Below are positions 27,873 to 64,000 of a stretch of DNA of 64,000 nucleotides, one piece after another. Numbering within the stretch: position 1 is the first letter of the stretch; every line of letters begins with the position of its first letter. Under the pieces are notes generated by a model. It worked only from the letters and a program-made list of their open reading frames with translations, made no database searches and was not told the origin of the DNA. Made by a program: the position numbers and the translations under genes. Location of the stretch: positions 9,424,001-9,488,000 of the forward strand of contig JBHGNT010000008.1 of NCBI GenBank assembly GCA_043228905.1, in the 5' to 3' direction. The DNA is from Azolla caroliniana (lineage: Eukaryota > Plantae > Polypodiophyta).

Positions 27873-30800
27873 TGTTGCGGTATTCCGTGCGCATGTGTCG
27901 GAATGGGCAGGACCACCGAGGTCTCAGACCGGGGAGAAATGGCTATCAGAAGACTGATATCTCTAGAGTCAGATACACCAACTATGACACCAACCAAAAT
28001 GATTTCAGATGCAAGCCGGGGCAGCTGAACCAGACAGATTTGGATGCATCCTAGAAGCAACTGGGTTGGAGACGATGTCGTGAAAATTCGCCAGTAAGTG
28101 CGGATCGTGAGGCGGAACTGTCGGCGTTCTGGACAGGAAGGATTTAAGGTTAAATGACTTATGCACTTTAAGTTCTAAGACGAGATATTTCCTTCGAATA
28201 AGAGTAAGATAGTATCAGAGATTGATTAATACTTAATTATAGTTATGCACAAGAAAATCTTCGAGTAAGAGATTATGTATAACACTCAGTTATTAAACTT
28301 ATACATAAACAAAGTTAAAGTAAGACAGTATGAGAGAGGAAACATGGAAAGTTTTTTATTACTAGATCATCAATTTGATGGACTAATTTTGTTACATAAT
28401 TTATCTTTTGCTATCTCCCCTTTTAGGGTATAAGAGTATGAGAGAGGGAACATAAATCTTTTCTTCTTCAAATCCCCATCCATCTCTCTTTCTTCTAGTT
28501 GCATCCACCCCCACCAAACCTGCACATCCTCCGGTATGTGCCAAGTGTTGTATTGAGTTGCATCCTCCTAGTTGAAATATTTAATCCTTTTCCTAATATT
28601 TTCCTTTCTTCATAACCTAACTATCTATGATAGAGATTGACCTTGAACCATCTCATTGGCTCCTTATGTCTCTTCTTCTAATGCCACCACGACCATTCTT
28701 TCCACCATAGCCATGGAGACCATCCAAACCACCAAATTCGTCGTCTGAGCTTTGCACCATCGTTGTTGGTTTTCATGTCCTTTTCTACCTTCGCCGAGAA
28801 TAAGCCTTCATGCACCATGCATGTGTCGCCTTCGTTTTTGACCATCTCCATGGTCAATGCACTTCAATCTTCCTTGTTCCGTCCATCCAGGTTTGTCTTC
28901 ATTAAGCCTCATCCAAACATCGACTTTAACTACTCCCTATAGCCCATGCTCCAAGTACATGCTCACATTTAGGCCCTTAGATGACCACATTGCATGTTTT
29001 CCGGTTCGTCCTTTTTCTTGGTATGCTCTTATGTGAGAGTTGACCATCGGTTGTTCGACCTTCGTATTAGTGTCCTCTTTTGAGTCGATACTATGATCAA
29101 ATCCCAAGGAAATGCCCTTAGAATTCACTTGGTTTTCTTGGCCCTCATCATGCACCATTGTGCTTTGTTTGACCTCTTCATCGTATGCATCAACTTTGAC
29201 CTTCACGTCCTTGCTGCCACCTTCCTTCTCTTGGGTCTTAATTTGGTTCGGGTATGTCTCTTTGGTGATGGCCCTTTCTCCATCGACCGATATGTTCCCG
29301 TCTACCATTGCCCAAATCTCTTGAAATAGTGGAGAGGAAGTCTTGGCACACTTGTCATCCTCCTTCATTGTGTTGTCCTTAGTCACCTCTTATCCGTGGC
29401 CATCTCTTCAAACTCATGGGCTGCATACCCATTGACCTTATCGATCGAGCATGCCTCAATTATGCTTGCCCCTTCATCATACACATTGGTTTCGACCTTC
29501 GCTTCCTCGCCGCCACTTTCCTTCTCTTGGTTCTTCATTTGGTTTGGGTATGATTATTTCGGTGATGGCCCTTTTTCCGCCGAACAATATGTCCCCATTC
29601 ACCACTACCCAAATCTCTTGAAATAGTGGGGAGGAAGTCTCAGCACACTTGCCATCCTCCTTCATTGTGTTGTCCATAGCCACCTTCATCCTGACGTCAT
29701 TGTCCTCCATTGCTCTTTTGGTCGGCTCACTCTGCTCTGACATCTCAATTGCTATTGGAGCCTTCCATCTTTGAACTATCAACCCTGCCATGTCAGAATC
29801 ATCTAGCCATCGACGACGCTTGTTGAACTAGCCACATGCTCTTCTTATCTCAACCCAATCCATTATGAGACCATTGGGTTGTGTTTCATCCTCCATTAGA
29901 CTACCTAGTTCTCGTCTATCTTTCACATCTACCGCCTTTAAGAAGTATAGAACCTTATCTCCTTCGAGAAATATCTGGTCGGTGCTTTGGAGACAATTGT
30001 ACATTTGGTCGAATTCATTGTACACCCCCAATGCATTCTTGTTCTTCCCCTTCTTCTCAATCCACTTCATCAACGTGTGTCGCGTCATCCTCGATGCATC
30101 TTCAAGCATATATTCAACCAAAAGTGCCCTTTTCGAATCCCACCCATGTTGTTTGGGTGACTTGAATCTCTCTTATACGTCCTTGCAACCAATTTGCCAC
30201 GACACACTTGAAGCTTGATATTTGTTTCTCTTCAATGACATCTCCTTGTTGCATCTCTGTCTTGTATATACAAAGTTGAAGTAAGAGAGTATGAGAGAGG
30301 AAACATGGAAAGTTTTTTATTACTAGATCATCAATCCGATGGACTTATTTTGTTACATAATTTATCTTTTTCTATCTCCCCTTTTAGGGTATAAGAGTAT
30401 GAGAGAGGAAACATAAATCTTTTCTTCTTCAAATCCTCATCCCCCTCTATTTCATCTTAAGAATAGCTCTTATTTATAGGTTTTCTATGGCTTGATTTTT
30501 TTTTCTCCTAAAAAAAGTTTTGTTTATATGAGTCGCGTTTTATTTCTATTTCTATTTCTCTTTTATAAGCCCTTCATGTAAGATATTCTTAGAAAGATCT
30601 TGATGTTAGCTTTCTTATGAATCTTCCCTTTCCTAATTTTGACAATGGACGAGGAAATTATGAGCTTTTTCCTTTACCTTGCTCCTCAATTCCATGCCTT
30701 GCGTTTTTTTTATTACTTTTTTCTATTTTTCCTACTTTTGGGAACCCACTTCCATCTTTCGATCTTTTCATCATTTATTACAAAAGTTGACTTCGCAATA

Positions 30801-46836: not shown

Positions 46837-47914
46837 TGTCGTGGAGAAAACCGTCCCTAGGCGGAATCGGAGAATGATGTGCAGGAACCGGCCCTTACAC
46901 GCGGGCACAAGTTTTGTTGTAATGTACATATTTAGGTACAAGTTCGCTGATGTGGATATCCTAGGTCGCACAGATTTGATAGGTAGGAAATCGAGGCATA
47001 TCTCTGTCCGAAAGGACAGAGAATAAAGATGATGTAACAAGTTGTAACAGCCTCCCTCCTTGGGCTATAAAAGAGAGGGAGATGAATCGTGAAGGGGATG
47101 GTAGGGAGTCGAGGACGAAGTGCTGTTAGACTGGGACCGAGCTCTTCTCCTCCGTCTTTCTCTGTATTTGCTCTGTGCAGGTTTTCGAGAGGCTGATTCT
47201 GCTCCGTAGAACGCCCGAGTGCTTCCAACAGAGTCTCCATCTCGCTCTTCTGTGTGCGTGTGCGTAGGCGTAGGTGATTTGTCGCTCACTGACCTGCCGG
47301 TTGTAACCCCCTTTTATCAGAATATATATATACATATACACATTCGTCTTGTTTCCGTTGTTTCATCCGATTGCGGTTTCTATGTATTTGTGTGTGTGTG
47401 TGTGGAAGCGCGGTCATTGTCTTCTTGCTCCTACTCCTGATCGGTTATTCCTCAGTCCAAGACTCCCGTGGTCCCGCCTCGTTCTATACGCATAGGCACG
47501 GAGGGATGGCAGGAAACAAGCCCGTGACCGACGGCCTCCGGCTGGGCATCGGTGCTTGTGGTGCGACGCAGTCGGCCACGCCCGAAAGGACTGCGGGGAC
47601 TTCGCCGAAGCGATAAGGGCCAACATGGTGTACTTGTGGAACGGGCGGGTACATGCTAGCGAAACCCGGAGGGCCCTGGATCTGAACGTCGGACGAGGGG
47701 GGATGAGACGGTTGATGGAGGAAGCGGTGGCTCACCATGCAGAGACCATCGACTACTCGGCGTCGGCAAGAATCCGGGTCGGGAGTGATGAAGTCCGGAA
47801 AACGAAGGACTCCGGGTTCTGGCCGTTCGTGCTAGAAGGCCTAGCCCGTGTATGGCTAAGGAAAGAGGAAGCAGAGTGCGCGGAAAGACCGGTCCGGGAG
47901 GTAACCAGGTGGAG
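46837..47914 (+). mobile_element. Gypsy remnant (LTR-like part plus gag zinc-knuckle region), family related to element J
   Basis: TATA CTATAAAAG near 47065; RCLWCDAVGHARKDC..HASETRRALDLNVGRGGM homologous to 57585-57740. Confidence 0.7.
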
Positions 47915-50900
47915 TTTCATCGAAGGAACCAACGAAACAGCACCTGATGCAGCACATAAGGATTTCCCAGTGTGGGAACAATCGGCAAGCAGAGTGATGT
48001 ACTGCTTTCGCATCCAATGTCGGAGACCAGCTGCTAAGCCACATCCGAGACGCCAAGACGTCGAAGGAGGCTTGGGGAAACCTGAAGAAGGTCTTCTCCG
48101 CCCGAAAGCTACAACTCCGACAGGAGTTGAGCAATGTCCAACATAAGGACATGTCGGTGGCAGATTACACGGCCCGGATCAAAGAGATCTGTGAATCGCT
48201 TGCCTCTATCAACGTTATCGTAGAGGAAGACGAGATGGTACAGGTCTGTCTTGGGGGCCTGGCGTCGAAGTTTAGAGCGTTCTGAACGACGGTGTGTACA
48301 AGGGAGAATACGCCGTCATTTTTCGACTTACAGTCGATGCTCCTTGTAGAGGAGAACCACGCCAGTGTGTCAACTAGCGCACCCACTGACAGCCGGATGT
48401 TGTACACGGAGGCGGTTCGGTCCCGTGGGCGTGGTGGACAAGACGGGTCGGCACGCAATGGAGGCAGCCGGCAAGAGCAAGAACGAAGGCACAGAGATCG
48501 TGCCGACAACAGTTCCGGGACTTCCACAAGCAGGGGGAGTCAAGGTGGTGCCGGAGGCCGGCAAGACAAATCCGCAACGGAATTTTGGTAGTGTGGCAAG
48601 AAGGGCCAGAGAGAAAGCGAGTGTTGCATACGGCAAGGCCGGGAAGGATGGCCAACAAAGCTCGCACTACGCGAAGGGATCGGGAGGATCCAAGAACGGT
48701 AATGGGCCAGCCTTGGTGATGAAACACGATGCGAACTCGATGAAGAAGACCACTTCCAAATCAGAGGAAGTGTGGTATGTTGATTCCGGTGTGTCAAACC
48801 ACATGACGAGCCACAAAGAGTGGTTCTCCTTTTTGGAAAAACCGGATCAACCAGGAGTAGTCGAAACCAGAGACGACACTCCTCACCCAATCATGCACGT
48901 CCGAGAAGTCCCTTTGAGCCACGTCGGATAGAAGGGGAAGCTGATGAACGTATTACACGTTCCGACAATCACGAAGAACCTGGTGTCGGTCGGACAAATC
49001 GTCGACCAGGGGATGCAGGTGTGGTTTACGCACCTCGGGTGCTTCATCGAGGAAGCGGGCCAGATTATTGCGCAAGGGCGCAGAGACGGGAGGATGTTTA
49101 TCCTCGATACCAACGACATCGGCACCGCTCTGTTTGCAAAAGGACAGAAGGTCGAATTGGACATCGATCTGTGGCACAAGCGGATAGGCCACGTCAATTA
49201 CCGGAGGCTTCAAGACCTGCAAACAAAACAAGTTGTTTTCGGCTTGCCAAAGTTCAGCGGCCGGAAGGCCCAAGTATGTGAAGCCTGCCAACTCGGGAAG
49301 CAACACCGGCTTCCATTCGCTACCTAATGTAACCGGAGCCATATCAAGCTTGACCTTATCCATTCGGATGTGTGGGGACCGACATAGAATGTTAGTCTTG
49401 ACGGGAGTCGATATTTCGTCTCCTTCATCGACGACTATACGCGGCACACATGGATCTACCTCATTGAGCGGAAGAGCAAAGTCTTCGAGTGTTTTCAGAG
49501 TCTCCAAAGCATGGTGGAACGGGAATCACAGAGGAAGATCAAATGTTTGCGGTCGGACGGCGGGAAAGAATACTTTTCTGGCCAATTCAACAGTTATCTA
49601 TAGCAAACGGGAATTCGGCGAGAGTTTAGCTGCAGATACGCACCGCAACAGAACGATGTTGGCCAGAGGAAGAACCGGTTGCTCATTAACGAGGCAAGGG
49701 CAATGCTAGAGGAGAAGAGCATGCCCAAATTCTATTGGGCGGAGGTAGTCCAAACGGCTGTCTACATCCAGAACCGGATCGGTGACAACGTGTCAGCTCA
49801 CGAGCTGTATTTCGGGCGAAAGCTGAATTTGAGACACCTTAAGATCTTCCGTAGCATTGCATATGTGCATGTACCAACTGAGAAGTGGAGGAAGCTGGAT
49901 GCAAAATCGGAAAAATGCTTCCTAGTCGGCTATGCTCAAGAGCAAAAGGGTTATAAGTGTTATAAGCCCCAGACAAAGTAGGTCCGAGTTAGTCGAGATG
50001 TCGAGTTTGATGAATCGGCATCATGGTACTCCTTACCGACTCCGACTTACGAATCCAACCCGATGCCAAAGGATGAGGCCAGTGAGCCTGAACCGGCCCA
50101 AGTAGATGATGATGAAGCGTGGACTCAAGATGAGAGTCCGGAATCGTTTTGGTTGAGCGGACCGAACAAGCGACTGAGTCAATCTGACCAGTCCAATGAG
50201 GAACCGGCGAGTAGTAGAGACTCTACCGTGCTCTCCCCGCACAAGGAACCAAGGAGACGGTTCACGCGCAAAGAGAAAGGGAAGAAGAAGATGTCGGAAT
50301 TCGAAACCGGCAACGATGAATCGGATCAGTGTGCATCCGACTCCGGCAAGGACACAGGAGGATCTTTGGCAACAAAGACCGAACCGGCCAAGAAAGGCCT
50401 TAAACCGGATAATGGTGAGTTACATCGGTCCACCCGCCAGAAGGATCCCGTCAAGCGGTACGGGTACAATGAGTACATGGCACATCACTATGCGTACATG
50501 ACTAAGGTGGCGGAAGTGTGTGAGCCGGAGAGCTACGCAGAAGCGGCAAAGGACGCAAATTGGCGTGCGGCTATGGATGTCAACGAGACATGGGACCTAG
50601 TTGACCCTCCCCGTCATTGTAAACCGATCGGATGCAAGTGGTTGTACAAGATAAAGTACAACGCTGACGGTTCAGTTAACCAGTACAAGGCCCGGTTAGT
50701 GGCGAAGGGATACGCGCAGACCCACGGAATCGACTACGACAAGACCTTCGCTCCGGTAGCGAAGTTGATGACGGTTCGTGTGGTGTTGGCGGTTGCTGCA
50801 GCAAGGGGGTGGCATCTTGACCAGATGGATGTGAAGAATGCATTTCTTCAGGGTGATCTTGAAGAAGAAGTCATTATGACTCAGCCCCCCGGCTTTCAAT

Positions 50901-54100: not shown

Positions 54101-55436
54101 CTACTTCTGGTATAGGTGTGGGGTTTCTTCCGGTTGTCCAAACTATCGCGGCCCCACGCCTTGATAGTCCTCTCTAAAAATCCTCTCGGCCCTCGTCGCC
54201 GAGAGAATCTCGATTTCGTTCATGATTTGGCCTTACCATCAAGAATTGGATGGAGGGCTTACCGTCTTGGCTCTTTACCCTCGTGTATGTCGGACCATTG
54301 TCCAGCAGTTTGGTCTCCATACGAGCCGTTGTAATGGAAGGTTCCCCAAGAATCACTGGATGGGAAGACGTCTCCTACACGAAGAAGTGTTATTCAATCT
54401 CGACATCCCCAACTTTCATTCACATGTTCGGGCACGCACCATGAAGCTCTTCAGTAGCGCGGGTCATCGCGCGTATCTTCCAACCATGCTTCACGTTGAT
54501 CGGCTATTTACGCTTCTTGTAGAAGTCCATGGGCACTAATTTAATCTACGATCCGTGATCGATTAGCACTACCACCGACTCGTGCACATCCCCGATCTGA
54601 ACCAATGTCTCCATGGTAGCTCTTGCCCACTACGGCCTCATGTAGTGGCTTTCAGTGTATTCGTCTTCTACTGCCATCTCATCAATCAAGGCCTTCCTCA
54701 CTTCGACTGGCTTCTCAGCCTCCAGCTTCGTTGACAACCTCTTCCTTTTTATCAGATCAACAATGTCATCATGGAACTCCTTCTTCGTTATCCCTAGCAC
54801 CTCCCTCAGGGTGAGCTCCATCCGGCTGTCGAGGATCCGTTCCTCCAAGACCCTCCGTAGGTTCGTCATCCTCTCTATCTACGAGCTCAATAAAAAACCC
54901 GACAACTTCGTCTTCTCCTATGTGTTGGCTAGGCCTCCATCATTCTTCTACGGCCCACTCAGGTTGTCATACCAGTTCGAGGGACCGGCCTTTCTGGCCC
55001 GCTTGTCTTCCACCAGAACCTCATAGTTTTGGCATGCGACTTCCACGAACCCTGTTTTGTCTTCTACCAGATCGTCCCATCCAATGCCCTCTTGGATCCG
55101 CCTCTTCGTGCGGTCCGCTTCTTCTTTCCTTAGCCTCACACTGGATAGGCCCTCTAGCACAAGTGCCTAGATTCTGGTTTTGCATCCGGATCTGATGCCC
55201 TTCCCTCCTCCTACCTGGATCCTTGCCGACACCGAGTAGTGGATGGCCTCGACGTTTCAGGCCGCGGCTTCCTCCACTATCCTTTTCATCCCACCCCTGC
55301 CTATATTTACCTCCATGACCCTCCACGTATCGTTCCAAAGGTACAGTACATTACCCTTAAGTGCCTCGGCCAAATTGGCACAGTCCCTCCGGATGTGGTC
55401 GACAACGTCGCATCACATACACCTCTGGTCGAACGG

Positions 55437-56705
55437 TGTCGTGTGAATCTTCACACACTATGTAAAAGAATGAAATAATTATTATAGATTAGATTAGTAA
55501 CTTACTATAGAAAGATGGATATACTCAAGAGCTTCAAAATGTATTTTACTATATACAAAATGGAGAAATACATATCAAGTTATGAGAAAATAAAGTTTGA
55601 TTAGATAGGGAAATTAGAACTATCCCACATAGATAGGAAAGTTAAGGCCCTGGCTATATAAACACCTTGAGCTCCCTCATTTTTCATTTGTGCTAAGAGC
55701 ACTTTGGCCACTTTGTCTTGATGGATGATGGTGGCCAAATTCTCTAAAATTGGAAACCAGTCGATAAGCAAATCCGGAAAACGGGTCCGGTAAGCAAATC
55801 CGGAAACTGGCCGGTATGCAATTCGGAAACCGGCCGGTATGCAAAACCGGAACCAGTCGGCAAGCAAACCGGAACCGGAACGGGTATGCAAACCGGAAAC
55901 CGGCCGGTAAGCAAAACCGGAAACCGGCCGGCAAGCAAAACTGGAACCGGTCGGCAAGCAAAACCGGAACAGGAACCGGCCGGCAAGCAAAATCGGAACC
56001 GAAATCGACCGGCAAGCAAAATGGAACCGGCTACCGGACGAGGTTGGACGCGGACGGACGAAAGATTGGATCATGCAACAAACTAAAGTAAAGTGAAGAG
56101 AACTAAAGTAAAGGCCATGTGGACGCAAGCAACTAAAGGAGTGCATGGAAAAAGTAAAGGTCATGTGGACAGTCACATGCAACCAAAAGAAAAAGTTAGG
56201 CAACTAAAAGTAGAGGCCATGCAACAAAAAGTGGAAAGGCTATGATCAAGGGAGAACTCCATATTTATTCCATTTTTTTTCCTACACTAGGACACACTCT
56301 CCATATTATCTTAATTTTTTTTCTTTTCTTTGGGAGCTCTCTTATATTATCGAAGCCAATAACCCTAATCTTCCCTACGGAAGCTAGCTCTCAAGTAAAC
56401 CATAATTTCCATACGGAAGCAATCTCTCAAAATCCAAAATTCCTTGTCAAAGCCATATCACTCAAGAATCATAATCTCTTATTTCCTCCAATCTATTATT
56501 CTAATCATCTCCATAAGATAAAACTTTTGTAATCCCAATCTTGGGATTGATTGTAATCTTTCTTTCCCTTTTATTAATGAAATTTGTTAATCTTTCTCAT
56601 TTCGGTTAATTCTTAGTACATAAATACACGAATTTGATATCCTCTAGACAAAGGCCCCGGGGTCTTGCCTCAACGTTCACGTATCCTCGTCGTATTTTCG
56701 CGACA
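55437..56705 (+). repeat. 5' LTR of gypsy J (1269 bp) with a CCGG-rich tandem array
   Basis: Direct repeat of 62413-63682; array of about 20-25-bp CCGGCAAGCAAAACCGGAA units at 55750-56035. Confidence 0.95.
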
Positions 56706-56709
56706 TCTT

Positions 56710-56726
56710 TGGTGAACCCGACGTGA
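56710..56726 (+). promoter_or_regulatory. Primer binding site complementary to tRNA-Trp
   Basis: TGGTGAACCCGACGTGA is complementary to the plant tRNA-Trp(CCA) 3' end TCACGTCGGGTTCA-CCA. Confidence 0.85.
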
Positions 56727-56758
56727 AACGAGGCAGTAGGAGGATATCAAGTACGAAG

Positions 56759-58936
56759 ATGGCTTCGACAAGTGGAACTCAAGGAGAAGAATTGACGAAA
56801 GGCATGGTGTCCGTCGTCGAATTCATGCTGAAAGAGAGAGATCGGGAGGCTTTAGTCGACAAAGCTGTTGACCGAACTGTGGAGACAGTTGGAAGATTCG
56901 GTGGGAAGAATATCACAAATTTCCTTGCTACCTACCGGAATGAGATGCAACAAAGAGATGTCCATGATCCAAAACAAATTTCAAGCTTTAAGCGTGTGGT
57001 AGAACCCGGGATCCGTGAGCGCGTGATGGAGATCCAAAACGAGCATGCAACTTTGGCGGAGTTCAAAAGGGCTCTTCTCACTGAATACATGCTTGAAGAC
57101 GCATCGTGGATGACTCGGCATACGTTAATGAATTGGATCGAGAAGAAAGGGAAGAATCTGTGTGCATCGGGAATTTATGCCGAATTCGACCAGAAGTACA
57201 ACCGACTTCCGAGTGTTGAGCAACGAGTTCTCGACGGAGATAAAGTCGTACTATTCCTAAAGGCAATGGATGCGAAAGATCGGCGAGAATTGGGTAGTTT
57301 CTTGGAGGACGAAACACAACCAAATGGTTTGATAGCGGACTGGGCGGCGGTGAAGAAGGCTTGCAGCCGTTTTGATAAGCGGTGACAATGGCAAGAGGAA
57401 GCTGAGGTCAAGAATCCACAATTGTGGAAGAAGGCACCTACGACGATTGAGCCTAGTAAGCCGATCAACAATTTCGACAAGAAAGCAATGGAGGAGTCTA
57501 TAATCGAAGAGCTCTCCAAGAAGTTTGAAGCGGTATCGCTAGCCAACTTAGGTCGACGCGGGCCCAAGGGAAAAGAAGCGTATAGATGTGTGTGGTGCGA
57601 TAGCTTTGAACACTCACGAAGGGAATGTGCTGACTTGCAAGATGCGATCCGCAAGAATGTCGTTTATTTGGACATCAACATGATTCACTCGAGCGAGACC
57701 CGGAAGCCACTACGAGTGAACTTCGGAAGAGGTGGGCTGAAAAAGATTGTAGAAGAAGAAGATGCAAGGCATGTGGAGGCTATGCACTATGCCGCTTCGG
57801 CTGGGATACGAGTTGGAAAAGAGAATCTTAAAATGATCAAGCTAGGAGCTGGGTTTTGGCCAACGGTCTTCGAGTGCGAAGAAAAAGGCAAAATCAATTC
57901 AGAGGATCTAAAACTTGCTGACCGAAACGTGTGACGAGCAACCGGATGGTCAGATCCAATCGACGAAAACACAAGCTTTGCGGAGGTTGTGTGTGACACC
58001 TATGAAGCCCTTGTCGAAGAGAAGAGGAAGAGAACCGGTGAAGAAGATGGCACATCAAAGTGACCTAACACGAGGAACGGAGGGAAAGAAGGGCCACCCC
58101 AACCTATCCCAAGAAAAGAGATTGGTGAAACAAACATGAAGCCCGGTGGATCGAGCCAACCTGCTTGGATGGAAGTCGAAGAATCAACAAAGAAAGGAAA
58201 AGAATGAGCGGCACCGACTTACAAGCTAAGGTCGGACATAGAACAAACAACTAACTTGCGGAAGGTCCTTGAGGAGAAGGTTTTAGATAGTCATGTTGAC
58301 CTTACCTTGAGAGAGCTACTTGGGATCGCGAAGGAGTTCCATGATACTATCGTGGACCTTATTAAGAGGAAGCGGCAACAATCTGATGAAGAGGAGGTGA
58401 AAACAAGTGCCATAACCATGGCAAGATCGGAAGAGGAGGAAGAAGAAGAAGTGGTGGCGGATAGCCATTACTCACGGCCTCATTGGGCAAGAGCGACAAC
58501 AGAGACACCGGTGAAGATCAGGGAGAAGAAAGAGACCGTGGTCACTTTGATTGACCATGGCTCAGAGATCAACCTCATGTCGACCGAGTTCTACAAGAAA
58601 GGAAGATGGCCGATTAATACAAACCACGGATGGAAGATTCGAGCGGCGACGAAGGCTATGGACGACTTGTACGGAGCTTGCCCCAACGTTAAAGTCACGA
58701 TCGGGGATGTAGAGATTGATCAACACTTCTTCGTGCAAGACTCGGCTTCACATCCCGTCATCCTAGGACAACCATATATAACATCGTCCCGGATGGAGAC
58801 CAAGGTGTTCGATAATGGAGCAGCCTTCGCGCGCGTCAAGAGTCTTGATAGTAAAAGATCCGCTCAATTCCTAACGGTGCGAGCTAATCATGAAAGGAAC
58901 CGAGATAGCCTTGGAGGCGAATCCTCGGATTTTTAA
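56759..58936 (+). pseudogene. Gypsy J gag-protease ORF with a few in-frame stops
   Basis: Same-frame ORFs 56723-57385, 57422-57934 (CVWCDSFEHSRREC) and 58256-58936 (LIDHGSEINLM..VILGQPY). Confidence 0.88.
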
Positions 58937-58990
58937 AGCGCACTATTGAAGCATGGGGCACAAATAGTCCAAGCAATCATAAGTCCCCAC
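58927..58990 (+). promoter_or_regulatory. Putative -1 ribosomal frameshift signal (G_GAT_TTT plus H-type pseudoknot)
   Basis: Heptamer directly before the gag-PR stop; -1 frame open; stems ACTATT/AATAGT and TGGGG/CCCCA; conserved at 54118-54183 on the minus strand. Confidence 0.7.
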
Positions 58991-61900
58991 AAGGAAGCAA
59001 AGTGCGTGGATTGCAAGGAGAAGCAACATGCATCACACCTAGCGGCGCATGCAAACTTAGACTACTCAACAAGAAGGAAGAGTGTCAGATACAAGACTTC
59101 GAGGAGGTGCTAAAAGAAGAAAGCATAATGGAAGAAGAAGAATTCGTGTCATATATTCTGGAGGAAGCCTCATTTAACGACACCATCGGCGAAATCGAGG
59201 AAGTCGTGGATTTGAGCTATCCTCACCATCAACATGTGATTTCGGTTAACTCCGTCAACATGTATACTATCATCGATGAATATCATCGAGGCATCTTCAT
59301 AGAGGAAGTCGAAGTCAACACAAAATATAAAACCGTGGATAGGAAGATCAAGCCAGTTGCAGTTCCGCTACCGGAAGATAGCTGGCAAAAGATGAAGGAA
59401 GTTGCAAAAGATCCAAGCTTAAGGAACCCAAATACAATTGGTCACGTCTTCACTAAAGAGACGAAGGGAAAGCTACGAGTTGGAAGGGAGGATTCCTCCT
59501 CCCTGAAGAGGAGCGGATGTTTCGTGGAATGCTTGAAAGACATGGGAAGGCTTTCGCGTTTTTCCCACAAGAAATCGGGTGTGCTAATCCAAGGACAGTA
59601 GAACCGATGGTGATCTTCACGGTGCCGCATGTGCCTTGGAATTTGAAACCGATACCGGTTCTGAGAGCACACCTACCGAAGCTGATCGAGCTCTTAAAGG
59701 AGAAGGTGAGGATGGGAATTCTAGAACCGTCGAATGCTCCTTATTCTAATAGGTGGTTCATGGTGCCAAAGAAGAATGGATCGTTGTGATTCATTCAAGA
59801 TCTTCAACCCGTCAACAAGGTGACAATTCGGAATGCTGGAATCGGTCCGAGTGTGGATGAATTTGCCGAGGCGTTTGCGGGCCGGTCCATCTACTCCATC
59901 GGCGATCTCTACTCTGGCTACGATCAATTCCAGTTGGCGGTCGACAGTCGTGACATTACAACCATGAGAACTCCAATCGGGTTGGTGCGGATGTGTACCT
60001 TACCTCAAGGCGCAAGGAACTCGGTGGCTCATATGGTGAATGCCATGAACAAGGTCTTGAAGGATTGCATCCCGAATATCACGATGCCATTCTTAGATGA
60101 TATTCCGATAAAAGGATGTTCGGATGAAGATAAGGATGGATGTAGAAAGTTCGTCATGGATCATATGAAAGATTGCGAGAAGGTGCTCCAAAGGCTCGAA
60201 GATGCGAATTTGACATTTTCGGGAGAAAAATCCGCATTCGGGCAACCGGAGATCCTGGTGGTAGGTCACTTGTGTGGAGCATACGGTCGGAAGCCTTCGC
60301 CATCCAAGGTGAATGCAATCCAAGACATGAAAGAAGAATGTGTAACCCAAACGGAGGTTCGAAGGTTCCTTGGAGCATGCGCGTTTTATCATATTTGGAT
60401 TCCACACTACGCCCACATTGCTGAGCCATTATATGGTCTACTAAAGAAGAAGCGGATGTTCGAATGGACGAGCGAGCATACAATCGCCATCCGAAGGCTG
60501 AAGAAATTATTGATGGAGGCACCTGCATTACGGAAAGCGGATTGTTCATACGGCAAGCCCATTTTCGTGACTGTGGATACTAGTCCAATCGGAATTGGAT
60601 GGGTTATCAACCAAGAAGATGAAGATTGCAACCGATATGCAATTCGGTTTGGCGCGAAAGTGTTAAGTGACAGGCAAAGAAGGTATGCCCAAGTGAAGAG
60701 GGAGCTATGGGGGATCGTCTCGGCAATCAAATTTGATCGTGATTACCTTATTGGAGCAGAAGTCATAATTGAGACAGATTGCCTACCAATTTTGGGTATG
60801 ATATCTGGTTGTAATACACCGGATATTGCCATGTTGCGTTGGATTGCATATATCAAATCACTCAACCCGGAGATCCGTAATGTCGTTGCAGACATGCTAT
60901 CACGAGCGAGATACGACGGAGAAGAAGATCGACATTCTGATGAAGATGATGTTGGCTTGGATTTCTTTGCAAGTTCCTATGCTTGGGTGTTGACTACTTT
61001 CATAGAAGAGGACTACGAAGGCGAATTCGTGGAGATCGGGAAATACTTCAGTTCTCTCCAAAAAGATGAATCATGGTCGACGGAAGGCTTCCATCGAATT
61101 CGGAAGAAGGCATACAAGTATTTCCTTAAGGATGGAGCTCTTTGGAGGCATGCAAAAAAGAAGAATGGGACTCCGATGAGAGTTGTCTGCAAGCTAGAAG
61201 ACCAACAAAGACTAATGTCTGAAATTCATGATAGTGTTTTTGCAGGCCATCGAGGAATATGGGCTACGTTTGCAAAGCTTAAGGAGAAATATTGGTGGCC
61301 AGGCATCTACAAAGATGTAGCACCTTATGTGGAAACATGTAAGGAATGTCAGATGTTTTCGAATATTCGCCATCGAGATGGACTTCATCCGACTTACCCG
61401 TTGGCTATGCATTACAAGTGGATGGTGGACATCGTGATGATGCCAATGGGGCGATGGTAGATGAAGTATCTTGTGCTCGCAAGAGAGGATCTTACCAATC
61501 AAGTTGAAGGGCGAGCATTAAGAACTAAGGAGACATCATCGGTATGTCAATTCCTTCTTGAAGATGTTATTTGCAGATATGGATGCGTCGGCAAGATAGT
61601 GGCTGATAGAGGCGAGTTGAACGCCAATGAAGCTAGAGAATTCTTCTCGAGGATGGGAATCAAATTATCTCTTACCATGGCGTATAATCCGGAAGCAAAT
61701 GGGAAGGTGGAACATGGACATGGACCGATTGTCAAGGCTCTAGTGAAAGCTTGCCATGGGAAAATAGGAGAATGGCCACGTCTATTGCCATTTGCATTAT
61801 GGGCTGACAGGACTACTCATAACACGGTGACGGGATACATGCCGACAGAGCTCATATTCGGACAAAAGCCAATAATGCCGGTAGAACAAAGTATTATTTC

Positions 61901-62345
61901 ATGGTTTGCATTGCCATGGCAAGATGAGATAAGTAGAGAAGATCTTCTAGCATTGAGGATTCGACAATTAGAGCGGAATTTGGAAGATGTAGAGGTGGCT
62001 AAAGCGCGGCTAAAGAATGCAAGGCTAAAGAACAAGAAAGACTTCGATAAACGACATCGATTTCGGCCGAGGAAAATCGTTGAAGGAGATTGGGTGCTAG
62101 TCTATGACAGTAGCCTAGATAACCAACATAGTACGGCTCGAAAATTCTCACAACGATGGTTTGGGCCATATGTGGTGAAGAAAGTGGAAGATAATGCAAC
62201 ATATCATTTAGTAGAACTGGATGGTACACCACTTGCCTTGCCAATTGCCGGTAAAAGAATCAAGATCTTCAAGAGAAGAGATAGAATAGAAATTGGATTC
62301 GAAGCTTTTGACGATTCAGTCTTAAGCATCGATGAAAAAGTATAG
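58931..62345 (+). pseudogene. Gypsy J pol (RT, RNase H, integrase with GPY/F) with few lesions
   Basis: KYKTVDRKIKPV, DLYSGYDQF, LPQG, FLDDIPIKG, VTVDTSPIGIG, H..GH..C..C, DRGEL, WFGPY. Confidence 0.9.
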
Positions 62346-62412
62346 TAAACAAAAATGAATCCTCACCAAAATTGGCACATACCGGTGGATGTGTAGGTTT
62401 GGCGGGGGCGAA

Positions 62413-63682
62413 TGTCGTGTGAATCTTCACACACTATGTAAAAAAATAATGAAATAATTATTATAGATTAGATTAGTAGCTTACTATAGAAAGATGGATA
62501 TACTCAAGAGCTTCAAAATGTATTTTACTATATACAAAATGGAGAAATACATATCAAGTTATGAGAAAATAAAGTTTGATTAGATAGGGAAATTAGAACT
62601 ATCCCACATAGATAGGAAAGTTAAGGCCCTGGCTATATAAACACCTTGAGCTCCCTCATTTTTATTTGTGCTAAGAGCACTTTGGCCACTTTGTCTTGAT
62701 GGATGATGGTGGCCAAATTCCCTAAAACCGAAAACCGGCCGGTAAGCAAATCCGGAAAATGGGTCCGGTAAGCAAATCCGGAAACCAGCCGGTATGCAAT
62801 CCGGAAACCGGACGGCAAGCAAACCGGAACCGGAACGGGTATGCAAACCGGAAACCGGTCGGCAAGCAAAACCGGAAACTAGCCGGTAAGCAAAACCGGA
62901 ACCGGCCGGCAAGCAAAACTGGACCCGGCTTGCAAGCAAAACCAAAACCGGAACTGGCAAGCAAACTGGAACCGGCTGGCAAGCAAAATCGGAACCGAAA
63001 TCGACCGGCAAGCAAAATGGAACCGGCTACCGGACGAGGTTGGACACGGACGGACGAAAGATTGGATCATGCAACAAACTAAAGTAAAGTGAAGAGAACT
63101 AAAGTAAAGGCCATGTGGACGCAAGAAACTAAAGGAGTGCATGGAAAAAGTAAAGGTCATGTGGACAGTCACATGCAACCAAAAGAAAAAGCTAGGCAAC
63201 TAAAAGTAGAGGCCATGCAACAAAAAGTGGAAAGGCTATGATCAAGGGAGAACTCCATATTTATTCCATTTTTTTTCCTACACTAGGACGCACTCTCCAT
63301 ATTATCTTAATTTTTTTTCTTTTCTTTGGGAGCTCTCTTATATTATCGAAGCCAATAACCCTATCTCTTAAGTAAACCATAATTTCCATACGGAAGCAAT
63401 CTCTCAAAATCCAAAATTCCTTGTCAAAGCCATATCACTCAAGAATCATAATCTCTTATTTCCTCTAATCTATTATTCTAATCATCTCCATAAGATAAAA
63501 CTTTTGTAATCCCAATCTTGGGATTGATTGTAATCTTTCTTTCCCTTTTATTAATGAAATTTGTTAATCTTTCTCATTTCCGTTAATTCTTAGTACATAA
63601 ATACATGAATTTGATATCCTCTAAACAAAGGCCCCGGGGTCTTGCCTCAACGTTCACGTATCCTCGTCGTATTTTCGCGACA
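62413..63682 (+). repeat. 3' LTR of gypsy J (1270 bp)
   Basis: Direct repeat of 55437-56705. Confidence 0.95.
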
Positions 63683-64000
63683 ACGGCGACCTCCGGTTGC
63701 ACGACAAGACCCCACCGTCCCTCCCAGCCTAGGCAATCTTGAGATCGCGCACCATCTTCATTAGCTCCTCAAGAGTTGCGCCCCCTAATGGTCCTGCTAC
63801 CACATTGGCCAACGGCGTGCCCGACTCGAGCCACCGTCTTGTTTCGTTCGTTCTTGTCGGAACCGGTTCCTCTGGCTTCCTCCCCGCATTTGGGCCGGTC
63901 GTCAATGAACCTCCATCGTTCCAATCACGTTGTTTGTCGGAACAACGACAAACTCTTTTAACCACTGCCCATTCTTCCATGAGGCCCTCGTCTTTCTCCA

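Follow-up and report, generated by a model that had tools for sequence, protein, structure and literature searches.

In -1 frameshift signals the slippery heptamer is followed by a spacer of 5-9 nt and then by a stem-loop or a pseudoknot (PMC7618472), and the heptamer, X_XXY_YYZ, tolerates GGA (PMC3542737). One such heptamer, G_GAU_UUU, is a working -1 site in pea enation mosaic virus (PEMV) (PMC5009743). The same 2016 review summarizes a 2003 survey (Gao et al.), and that summary names only +1 arrangements among split-frame plant elements; a -1 signal shared by a whole lineage would add to these. Other plant elements mark the boundary between Gag-protease and RT-RH-INT differently, Ogre with an intron and Retand with a single in-frame stop (PMC6317226). 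An overlapping-frame junction at the protease/RT boundary is not listed for any lineage in supplement 5 of that work, in which the frame organization of Phygy is entered as 'ND'; Phygy is a plant non-chromovirus Ty3/gypsy clade described as Physcomitrella-specific (Neumann et al. 2019, PMC6317226). Our literature search of titles and abstract openings returned no frameshift in Phygy and no -2 shift in a retrotransposon, although the 2003 survey or other papers may mention such elements, and the relevant passages of PMC6911290, PMC11963269 and PMC2864245 hold nothing on such a frameshift.

The stretch of DNA analyzed here (the window; 64,000 nucleotides of Azolla caroliniana) contains J, a decayed Ty3/gypsy element of about 8 kb (55437-63682, plus strand) that is nested in a relative, I (Table 1). 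From comparisons of sequences, we consider it very likely that in this lineage, itself likely Phygy, Gag-protease stops after G_GAU_UUU and a predicted pseudoknot sends a minority of ribosomes into a -1 pol frame.

Table 1. Positions in the window of the features of elements J and I, with the sizes of intact elements found elsewhere.
Feature	Position	Strand	Remarks
5' LTR of J	55437..56705	+	TG...CA; target duplication ACGG directly upstream
Primer binding site of J	56710..56727	+	complementary to 3' end of host tRNA-Trp(CCA)
ORF1 of J: Gag, DUF4100, protease	56759..58936	+	single frame; four premature stops in J
Protease domain of J, retropepsin fold	58502..58890	+	approximate bounds; LIDHGS at 58547
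Slippery heptamer G_GAT_TTT of J	58927..58933	+	
ORF1 stop TAA of J	58934..58936	+	abuts heptamer
ORF2 of J, -1 frame: 130-codon linker, RT, RNase H, integrase	58927..62345	+	
Predicted stem 1, 5' strand, J	58940..58947	+	J differs from sisters at 58941
Predicted stem 2, 5' strand TGGGG, J	58954..58958	+	
Predicted stem 1, 3' strand AATAGTCC, J	58963..58970	+	
Predicted stem 2, 3' strand CCCCA, J	58985..58989	+	
3' LTR of J	62413..63682	+	93.4% identity to 5' LTR; ACGG directly downstream
Element I, 3' part of gag + protease	54174..55424	-	cut upstream by J
Heptamer G_GAT_TTT + stop TAG of I	54174..54183	-	
Predicted pseudoknot of I	54118..54170	-	stem 1 54170-54163/54147-54140; stem 2 54157-54152/54123-54118
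Upstream gag remnant of I	63714..63986	-	far side of J; weak tblastn match, E 4e-5
Intact elements L158, L159, L161			726 aa + 1149-1151 aa
Intact element L171			708 + 1165 aa; LTRs 100%
Intact element L230			710 + 1152 aa; LTRs 99.5%
Intact element L232			712 + 1201 aa; LTRs 100%

J has LTR termini TG...CA, a primer binding site, a polypurine tract and the domain order PR-RT-RH-INT, as Ty3/gypsy elements do. In a Pfam search with an intact ORF2, the only matches were to RT, a single RNase H region and integrase, with neither a chromodomain nor an extra RNase H. The primer binding site was complementary to the 3' end of tRNA-Trp(CCA) genes (4/4 loci checked, out of 63 matches), and the 4-bp target duplication has the form NCGN (ACGG in J), with identical flanks in most full-length copies for which both ends were resolved; L276 and L279, with mismatched flanks, are the exceptions. 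Members of the J family measure 8.2-8.5 kb and those of family Q 7.9-8.0 kb, inside the Phygy range of 7.7-10 kb, and families K, N and O, at 6.9-7.5 kb, fall slightly below it. The coding region occupies the element interior, as in Phygy, and Physcomitrium proteins are among the nearest named relatives (57-65% similarity, in the protease region only). The lineage of J and I shares with Phygy the NCGN duplication, the tRNA-Trp primer site, a size near 8 kb, a short internal region and the lack of extra domains, and by these traits it is likely Phygy. J was inserted at ACGG into the gag of I in the opposite orientation, and more gag fragments of the lineage lie in the window at 29699-30275 (minus strand) and 47529-47915 (plus strand). 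Clusters of tRNA-Trp-like 3' ends, some of them spaced evenly at ~1.2 kb, were also seen in genome G000 (C8:17.80-17.82 Mb and C16:4.99-5.11 Mb) and are possibly tandem tRNA gene arrays.

The sequence GGATTTTTAR occurs exactly twice in the window, once in J and once in I. The first-pass annotation had placed heptamer and stop correctly, as G_GAT_TTT_TAA on the plus strand and G_GAT_TTT_TAG on the minus strand, and its reading of gag and protease as a single frame was borne out in both elements (one tblastn segment each), the frames ending SSDF* in J and REDF* in I. In J, the -1 frame is open from the heptamer, as had been proposed, and runs for 224 codons, through the conserved TKYKT motif; it is then disrupted by a copy-specific indel near 59460, and further interruptions of ORF2 lie near 59787 and 61458. 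The family resemblance of I is lost about 97 nt past the heptamer and no pol is present there, so the pol frame cannot be deduced from I alone.

Heptamer and adjacent stop are present in 30/30 closest copies of J. In all 30, a stop ends frame 0 immediately and frame +1 after 6 codons, and in 12 of them the -1 frame is open across all 541 downstream codons. Full-length elements in which both frames are intact and meet at the site were found in four families (e.g., those in Table 1), and the young intact members, when checked for protease and RT in one frame, had split frames. Because the 30 closest copies and young full-length elements of four families all keep the site, decay was ruled out as the cause of the frame offset in J, which is real and an inherited design as judged from these alignments.

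The same layout was counted over a wider set of loci, from which re-fetched duplicates had been removed. Among the 178 loci with the protease end covered, which are related copies picked by similarity and hence not independent counts, 124 have GGATTTT, 10 have GGTTTTT, 16 have a variant, and no site was found in 28. The linker could be measured at 125 loci and leads into the -1 frame in 92, into -2/+1 in 26 (10 of them family Q, the remainder likely indels) and into frame 0 in 7; it is stop-free in 76/92 loci with the RT-side motif in -1 and in 0/7 loci with that motif in frame 0. The base preceding GAT is G in 17/18 aligned copies, where it falls within codons for S, E, M, Q, A, R and G. At the protein level, the C-terminus is exactly DF in 45/120 homologues, and DF lies within the last 8 residues of 108/186 related proteins with the protease end covered. 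Named homologues come from Physcomitrium (moss), Adiantum (fern) and liverworts including Riccia, where the signal is known at the protein level only.

Three in-frame exceptions were picked as long-frame outliers among 136 and 150 matches listed: L220 and L221, with one extra T in the T run, and L235, from which the site is deleted in frame. These look like single events or assembly slips. P0160, a distant singleton protein, has protease and RT in one frame, and a single-frame relative may therefore exist. Single-base changes within the run of T at the shift site comprise the gains in L220 and L221 and losses in L185, L103 and L111; RT slippage or errors of assembly may account for them. Such copies would also fit a repair of the frame in the RNA, with polymerase or reverse transcriptase slipping on the T5 run to insert one T; however, the run has only five T, family Q would require two added bases, and such slippage leaves both the conserved GGA and a pseudoknot at ribosome spacing unexplained, making this route extremely unlikely. 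A set of young elements of 3.6-4.5 kb (L222, L223, L225, L226 and L228) codes for Gag-protease alone, followed by the polypurine tract and 3' LTR; they keep the lineage primer site and the NCGN duplication, their LTRs are 99-100% alike, and they are likely non-autonomous partners cut at the junction.

The domain upstream of the site scores against protease profiles only under the Pfam cut-off, and a sequence search of this region against solved structures gave no match. A structure model of the protease of a sister copy, built from 100 sequences, reached pLDDT 88 (a model from 11 sequences gave 43), and its best matches were Ddi1 and retroviral proteases. Pfam found no protease in ORF2. The upstream fold and the lack of a Pfam protease in ORF2 together place the site after the protease. 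The protease motif reads D-H-G (LIDHGS, 58547-58564) instead of the usual D-T/S-G in 9/11 alignment rows, and the fold is still that of a retropepsin.

From heptamer to RT the -1 frame encodes a linker of 130 codons that is conserved at the protein level across families and evolves under purifying selection when read in the pol frame. Ahead of the first conserved Met, which stands about 110 codons downstream, dN/dS is 0.16-0.65 in 10/14 pairs, the other 4 pairs being saturated. The 130-residue linker had no Pfam match; conserved motifs EE.SF.DT, V.S..MY and TKYKT were noted within it at 58990-59320.

The purifying selection on the linker argues against an intron at the junction. Pol could in principle be reached as in Ogre, with the stop region spliced out of some transcripts and the structure regulating splicing, and some gene models in Physcomitrium, Adiantum and Riccia do connect protease to pol. 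Of the 186 related proteins, 39 continue past the site, 22 of these into pol-like sequence. The named read-through proteins are, however, gene models that join protease to pol at differing points, and the linker is open and protein-conserved from the heptamer onward. There is no GT within 45 nt 5' of the site in 5/18 copies, J and I included, nor any GT position common to the 18 copies. Judged from DNA, the junction thus differs from the non-coding intron of Ogre in having a coding linker and no shared donor, and we regard splicing as very unlikely here, although it may occur in the species of those gene models. Two raw RNA runs yielded no more than 46 and 27 reads, most of them partial, and two contig sets resembled DNA. 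Annotators should be prepared for false intron models at the protease/pol junction.

Pol might also be translated on its own, through reinitiation or out of a subgenomic RNA, with the structure serving packaging or dimerization. Foamy viruses express Pol apart from Gag, and a second role for the structure is compatible with the evidence; the codons that precede the first conserved Met are nevertheless under purifying selection, and the heptamer is left unexplained. Separate expression is therefore most improbable, and a shift at the heptamer is the reading that we follow.

A predicted H-type pseudoknot starts 6 nt 3' of the heptamer, and this spacing is constant. The first-pass annotation had recognized both stems in J and I, and they are present; its 6 bp for stem 1 fell short, as the family has 8-9 bp, GGACTATT/AATAGTCC. 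The compensatory U-A to C-G change that it reported in stem 1 between J and I was confirmed. The outer pairs of stem 1 are weakened in both window copies, and stem 1 is absent from their nested minimum-energy fold. A perfect 8-bp stem 1 with a 5-bp stem 2 occurs in 24/30 closest J copies.

The junction alignment and covariation check that had been recommended were run on 18 copies from this genome and metagenome contigs, in an alignment based on sequence only that has no gaps between the heptamer and the last column of stem 1. RNAalifold, unaided, paired columns 14-21 with 37-44 of this alignment, i.e., stem 1. Covariation of stem 1 was 0.352, compared with 0.228 +/- 0.021 after shuffling, a control that ignores the relatedness of the copies and in which 0/500 reached the observed value; slid positions gave at most 0.143. 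The best pseudoknot was equalled by no more than 2/100 dinucleotide shuffles in 15/18 copies and by 5-8/100 in the other 3. Stem 2 pairs are mostly GGGG/CCCC, with GCAAGGA/TCCTTGC in family M, GAGGG/CCCTC in Q and GGGAC/GTCCC in L139, in a table that is fitted because the 3' strand of stem 2 was selected by search. The letters of stem 2 are altered on both strands in M, Q, L139 and L140, and family O has only 4 bp. These data show that stem 1 covaries across the 18 copies and that stem 2 changes on both strands.

Nested folding found stem 1 in 5/8 sequences; J, I and the intact J-family copy L012 prefer other folds, that of L012 pairing through a second AGUCC. This second AGTCC, at 58982-58986 in J, can pair with the 5' strand of stem 1 in an alternative fold of the J family, and in such folding models it is a possible conformational switch.

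The junction has the components of a canonical -1 signal, i.e., a heptamer in the zero frame, a 6-nt spacer, predicted stems and a -1 ORF without a start of its own. A ribosome would meet GAU UUU with the stop codon next and the pseudoknot 6 nt ahead, and would presumably pause there. The tRNA-Asp and tRNA-Phe could then slip in tandem from GAU UUU to GGA UUU. Most ribosomes would terminate and yield Gag-protease, and some would shift and continue through linker, RT, RNase H and integrase to give the full polyprotein. The expected products are much Gag-protease and little full polyprotein, as in alpharetroviruses.

Family Q (loci L193-L203 and L240-L289 in G000, e.g., C16:14462600-14472500) has a different layout. 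Its ORF1 ends NQVFD, and AG_GTT_TTT_GAC_TAG stands where other families have the usual site. AG_GTT_TTT is found in 30/30 closest Q copies, the -1 frame is closed by TGA after two codons in 29/30, and the -2 frame is open to the end of the locus in 21/28 scored copies. In 8/20 full-length Q fetches both the 739-codon ORF1 and a 1154-codon -2 frame are present, with LTRs matching at 99.8-100%, which indicates that this layout has replicated recently. The pol-frame peptide of Q is in register with that of other families. The spacer is 5 nt in Q versus 6 elsewhere, and the predicted pseudoknot, which Q retains, is stronger there than in any other member of the set.

A spacer shorter by 1-2 nt favors -2 over -1 shifting (PMC7618472), and on the basis of its site, spacer and predicted stems Q probably shifts by -2 at AG_GUU_UUU with the help of the same pseudoknot. 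Since +1 and -2 shifts yield the same frame, Q alone might instead reach pol by a +1 shift (e.g., UUU to UUG), and UUU codons in the overlap would retain two of three bases after +1. Several points speak against this: within the 13-codon overlap of L278 no codon pair other than GTT_TTT re-pairs fully in the A site after -2, the arterivirus -2 site is identical, the shorter spacer favors -2 (PMC7618472), and the pseudoknot is kept, so that a +1 shift is very unlikely. With the -2 reading retained, a shortening of the spacer by 1 nt together with GAU to GUU would convert a -1 signal into a -2 signal under the same pseudoknot. Trees neither placed family Q nor gave a root, and the direction -1 to -2 is therefore suggested only by the rarity of the Q layout and by the DF endings in other plants; QVFD and QVFY endings occur in related proteins of other data sets. 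We lean, with some reserve, towards the broader view that the entire Phygy lineage of seed-free plants uses a pseudoknot-driven shift after the protease and that one recently active family switched from -1 to -2.

The feature is real and is a variant of a known frameshift mechanism, to which the -2 family adds interest. For a major retrotransposon lineage found in mosses, liverworts and ferns it supplies the missing mode of expression, and its families provide naturally occurring pseudoknot variants for plant ribosomes. The pair of -1 and -2 families also allows the spacer-length model to be tested with natural sequences; if the switch from -1 to -2 is true, it would be a natural confirmation of the spacer-tension model, and Q would be a retroelement that relies on structure-driven -2 frameshifting for its essential polymerase.

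The expression strategy had been called unusual for plants in the first-pass annotation. The split between Gag-protease and RT is not in itself unusual, as Ogre and Retand have it, and what stands of the claim is the overlapping-frame junction at that boundary. The lineage resembles these Tat clade elements in the boundary and in the same likely excess of Gag-protease; they carry an extra RNase H, whereas in the J lineage the frames overlap at a slippery site. Because this boundary has been reached separately by intron, stop and frameshift, selection for extra protease or limited RT is suggested. The shift site and stimulator of alpharetroviruses differ from those of the J lineage. The likeness to alpharetroviruses (RSV/ASLV) is that Gag includes the protease and RT is reached by a -1 shift (PMC12789967, PMC8310308), but the J lineage is a plant retrotransposon with a 130-residue linker before RT. 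The Phygy entry in supplement 5 is extended in that the layout here is resolved as Gag-protease followed by RT-RH-INT in an overlapping frame (PMC6317226). With the umbravirus PEMV the lineage shares the heptamer G_GAU_UUU, a stop close behind it and plant ribosomes; in PEMV, however, the shift serves an RNA virus replicase and the stop lies 3 nt past the site, whereas here the stop is adjacent (PMC5009743). Family Q has the same octamer as PRRSV, AG_GUU_UUU, and likewise meets a stop at once in the -1 frame, with the -2 frame open (PMC7618472, PMC8310308). The arterivirus CCCANCUCC motif is absent from the examined sequence downstream of the Q site, and a strong predicted pseudoknot stands in that position. 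Shifting to PRRSV nsp2TF requires a protein complex bound to a C-rich motif and involves no RNA structure (PMC7618472, PMC8310308), whereas in Q a predicted pseudoknot lies 5 nt away, and what Q makes by shifting, unlike the product of PRRSV, would be the essential polymerase.
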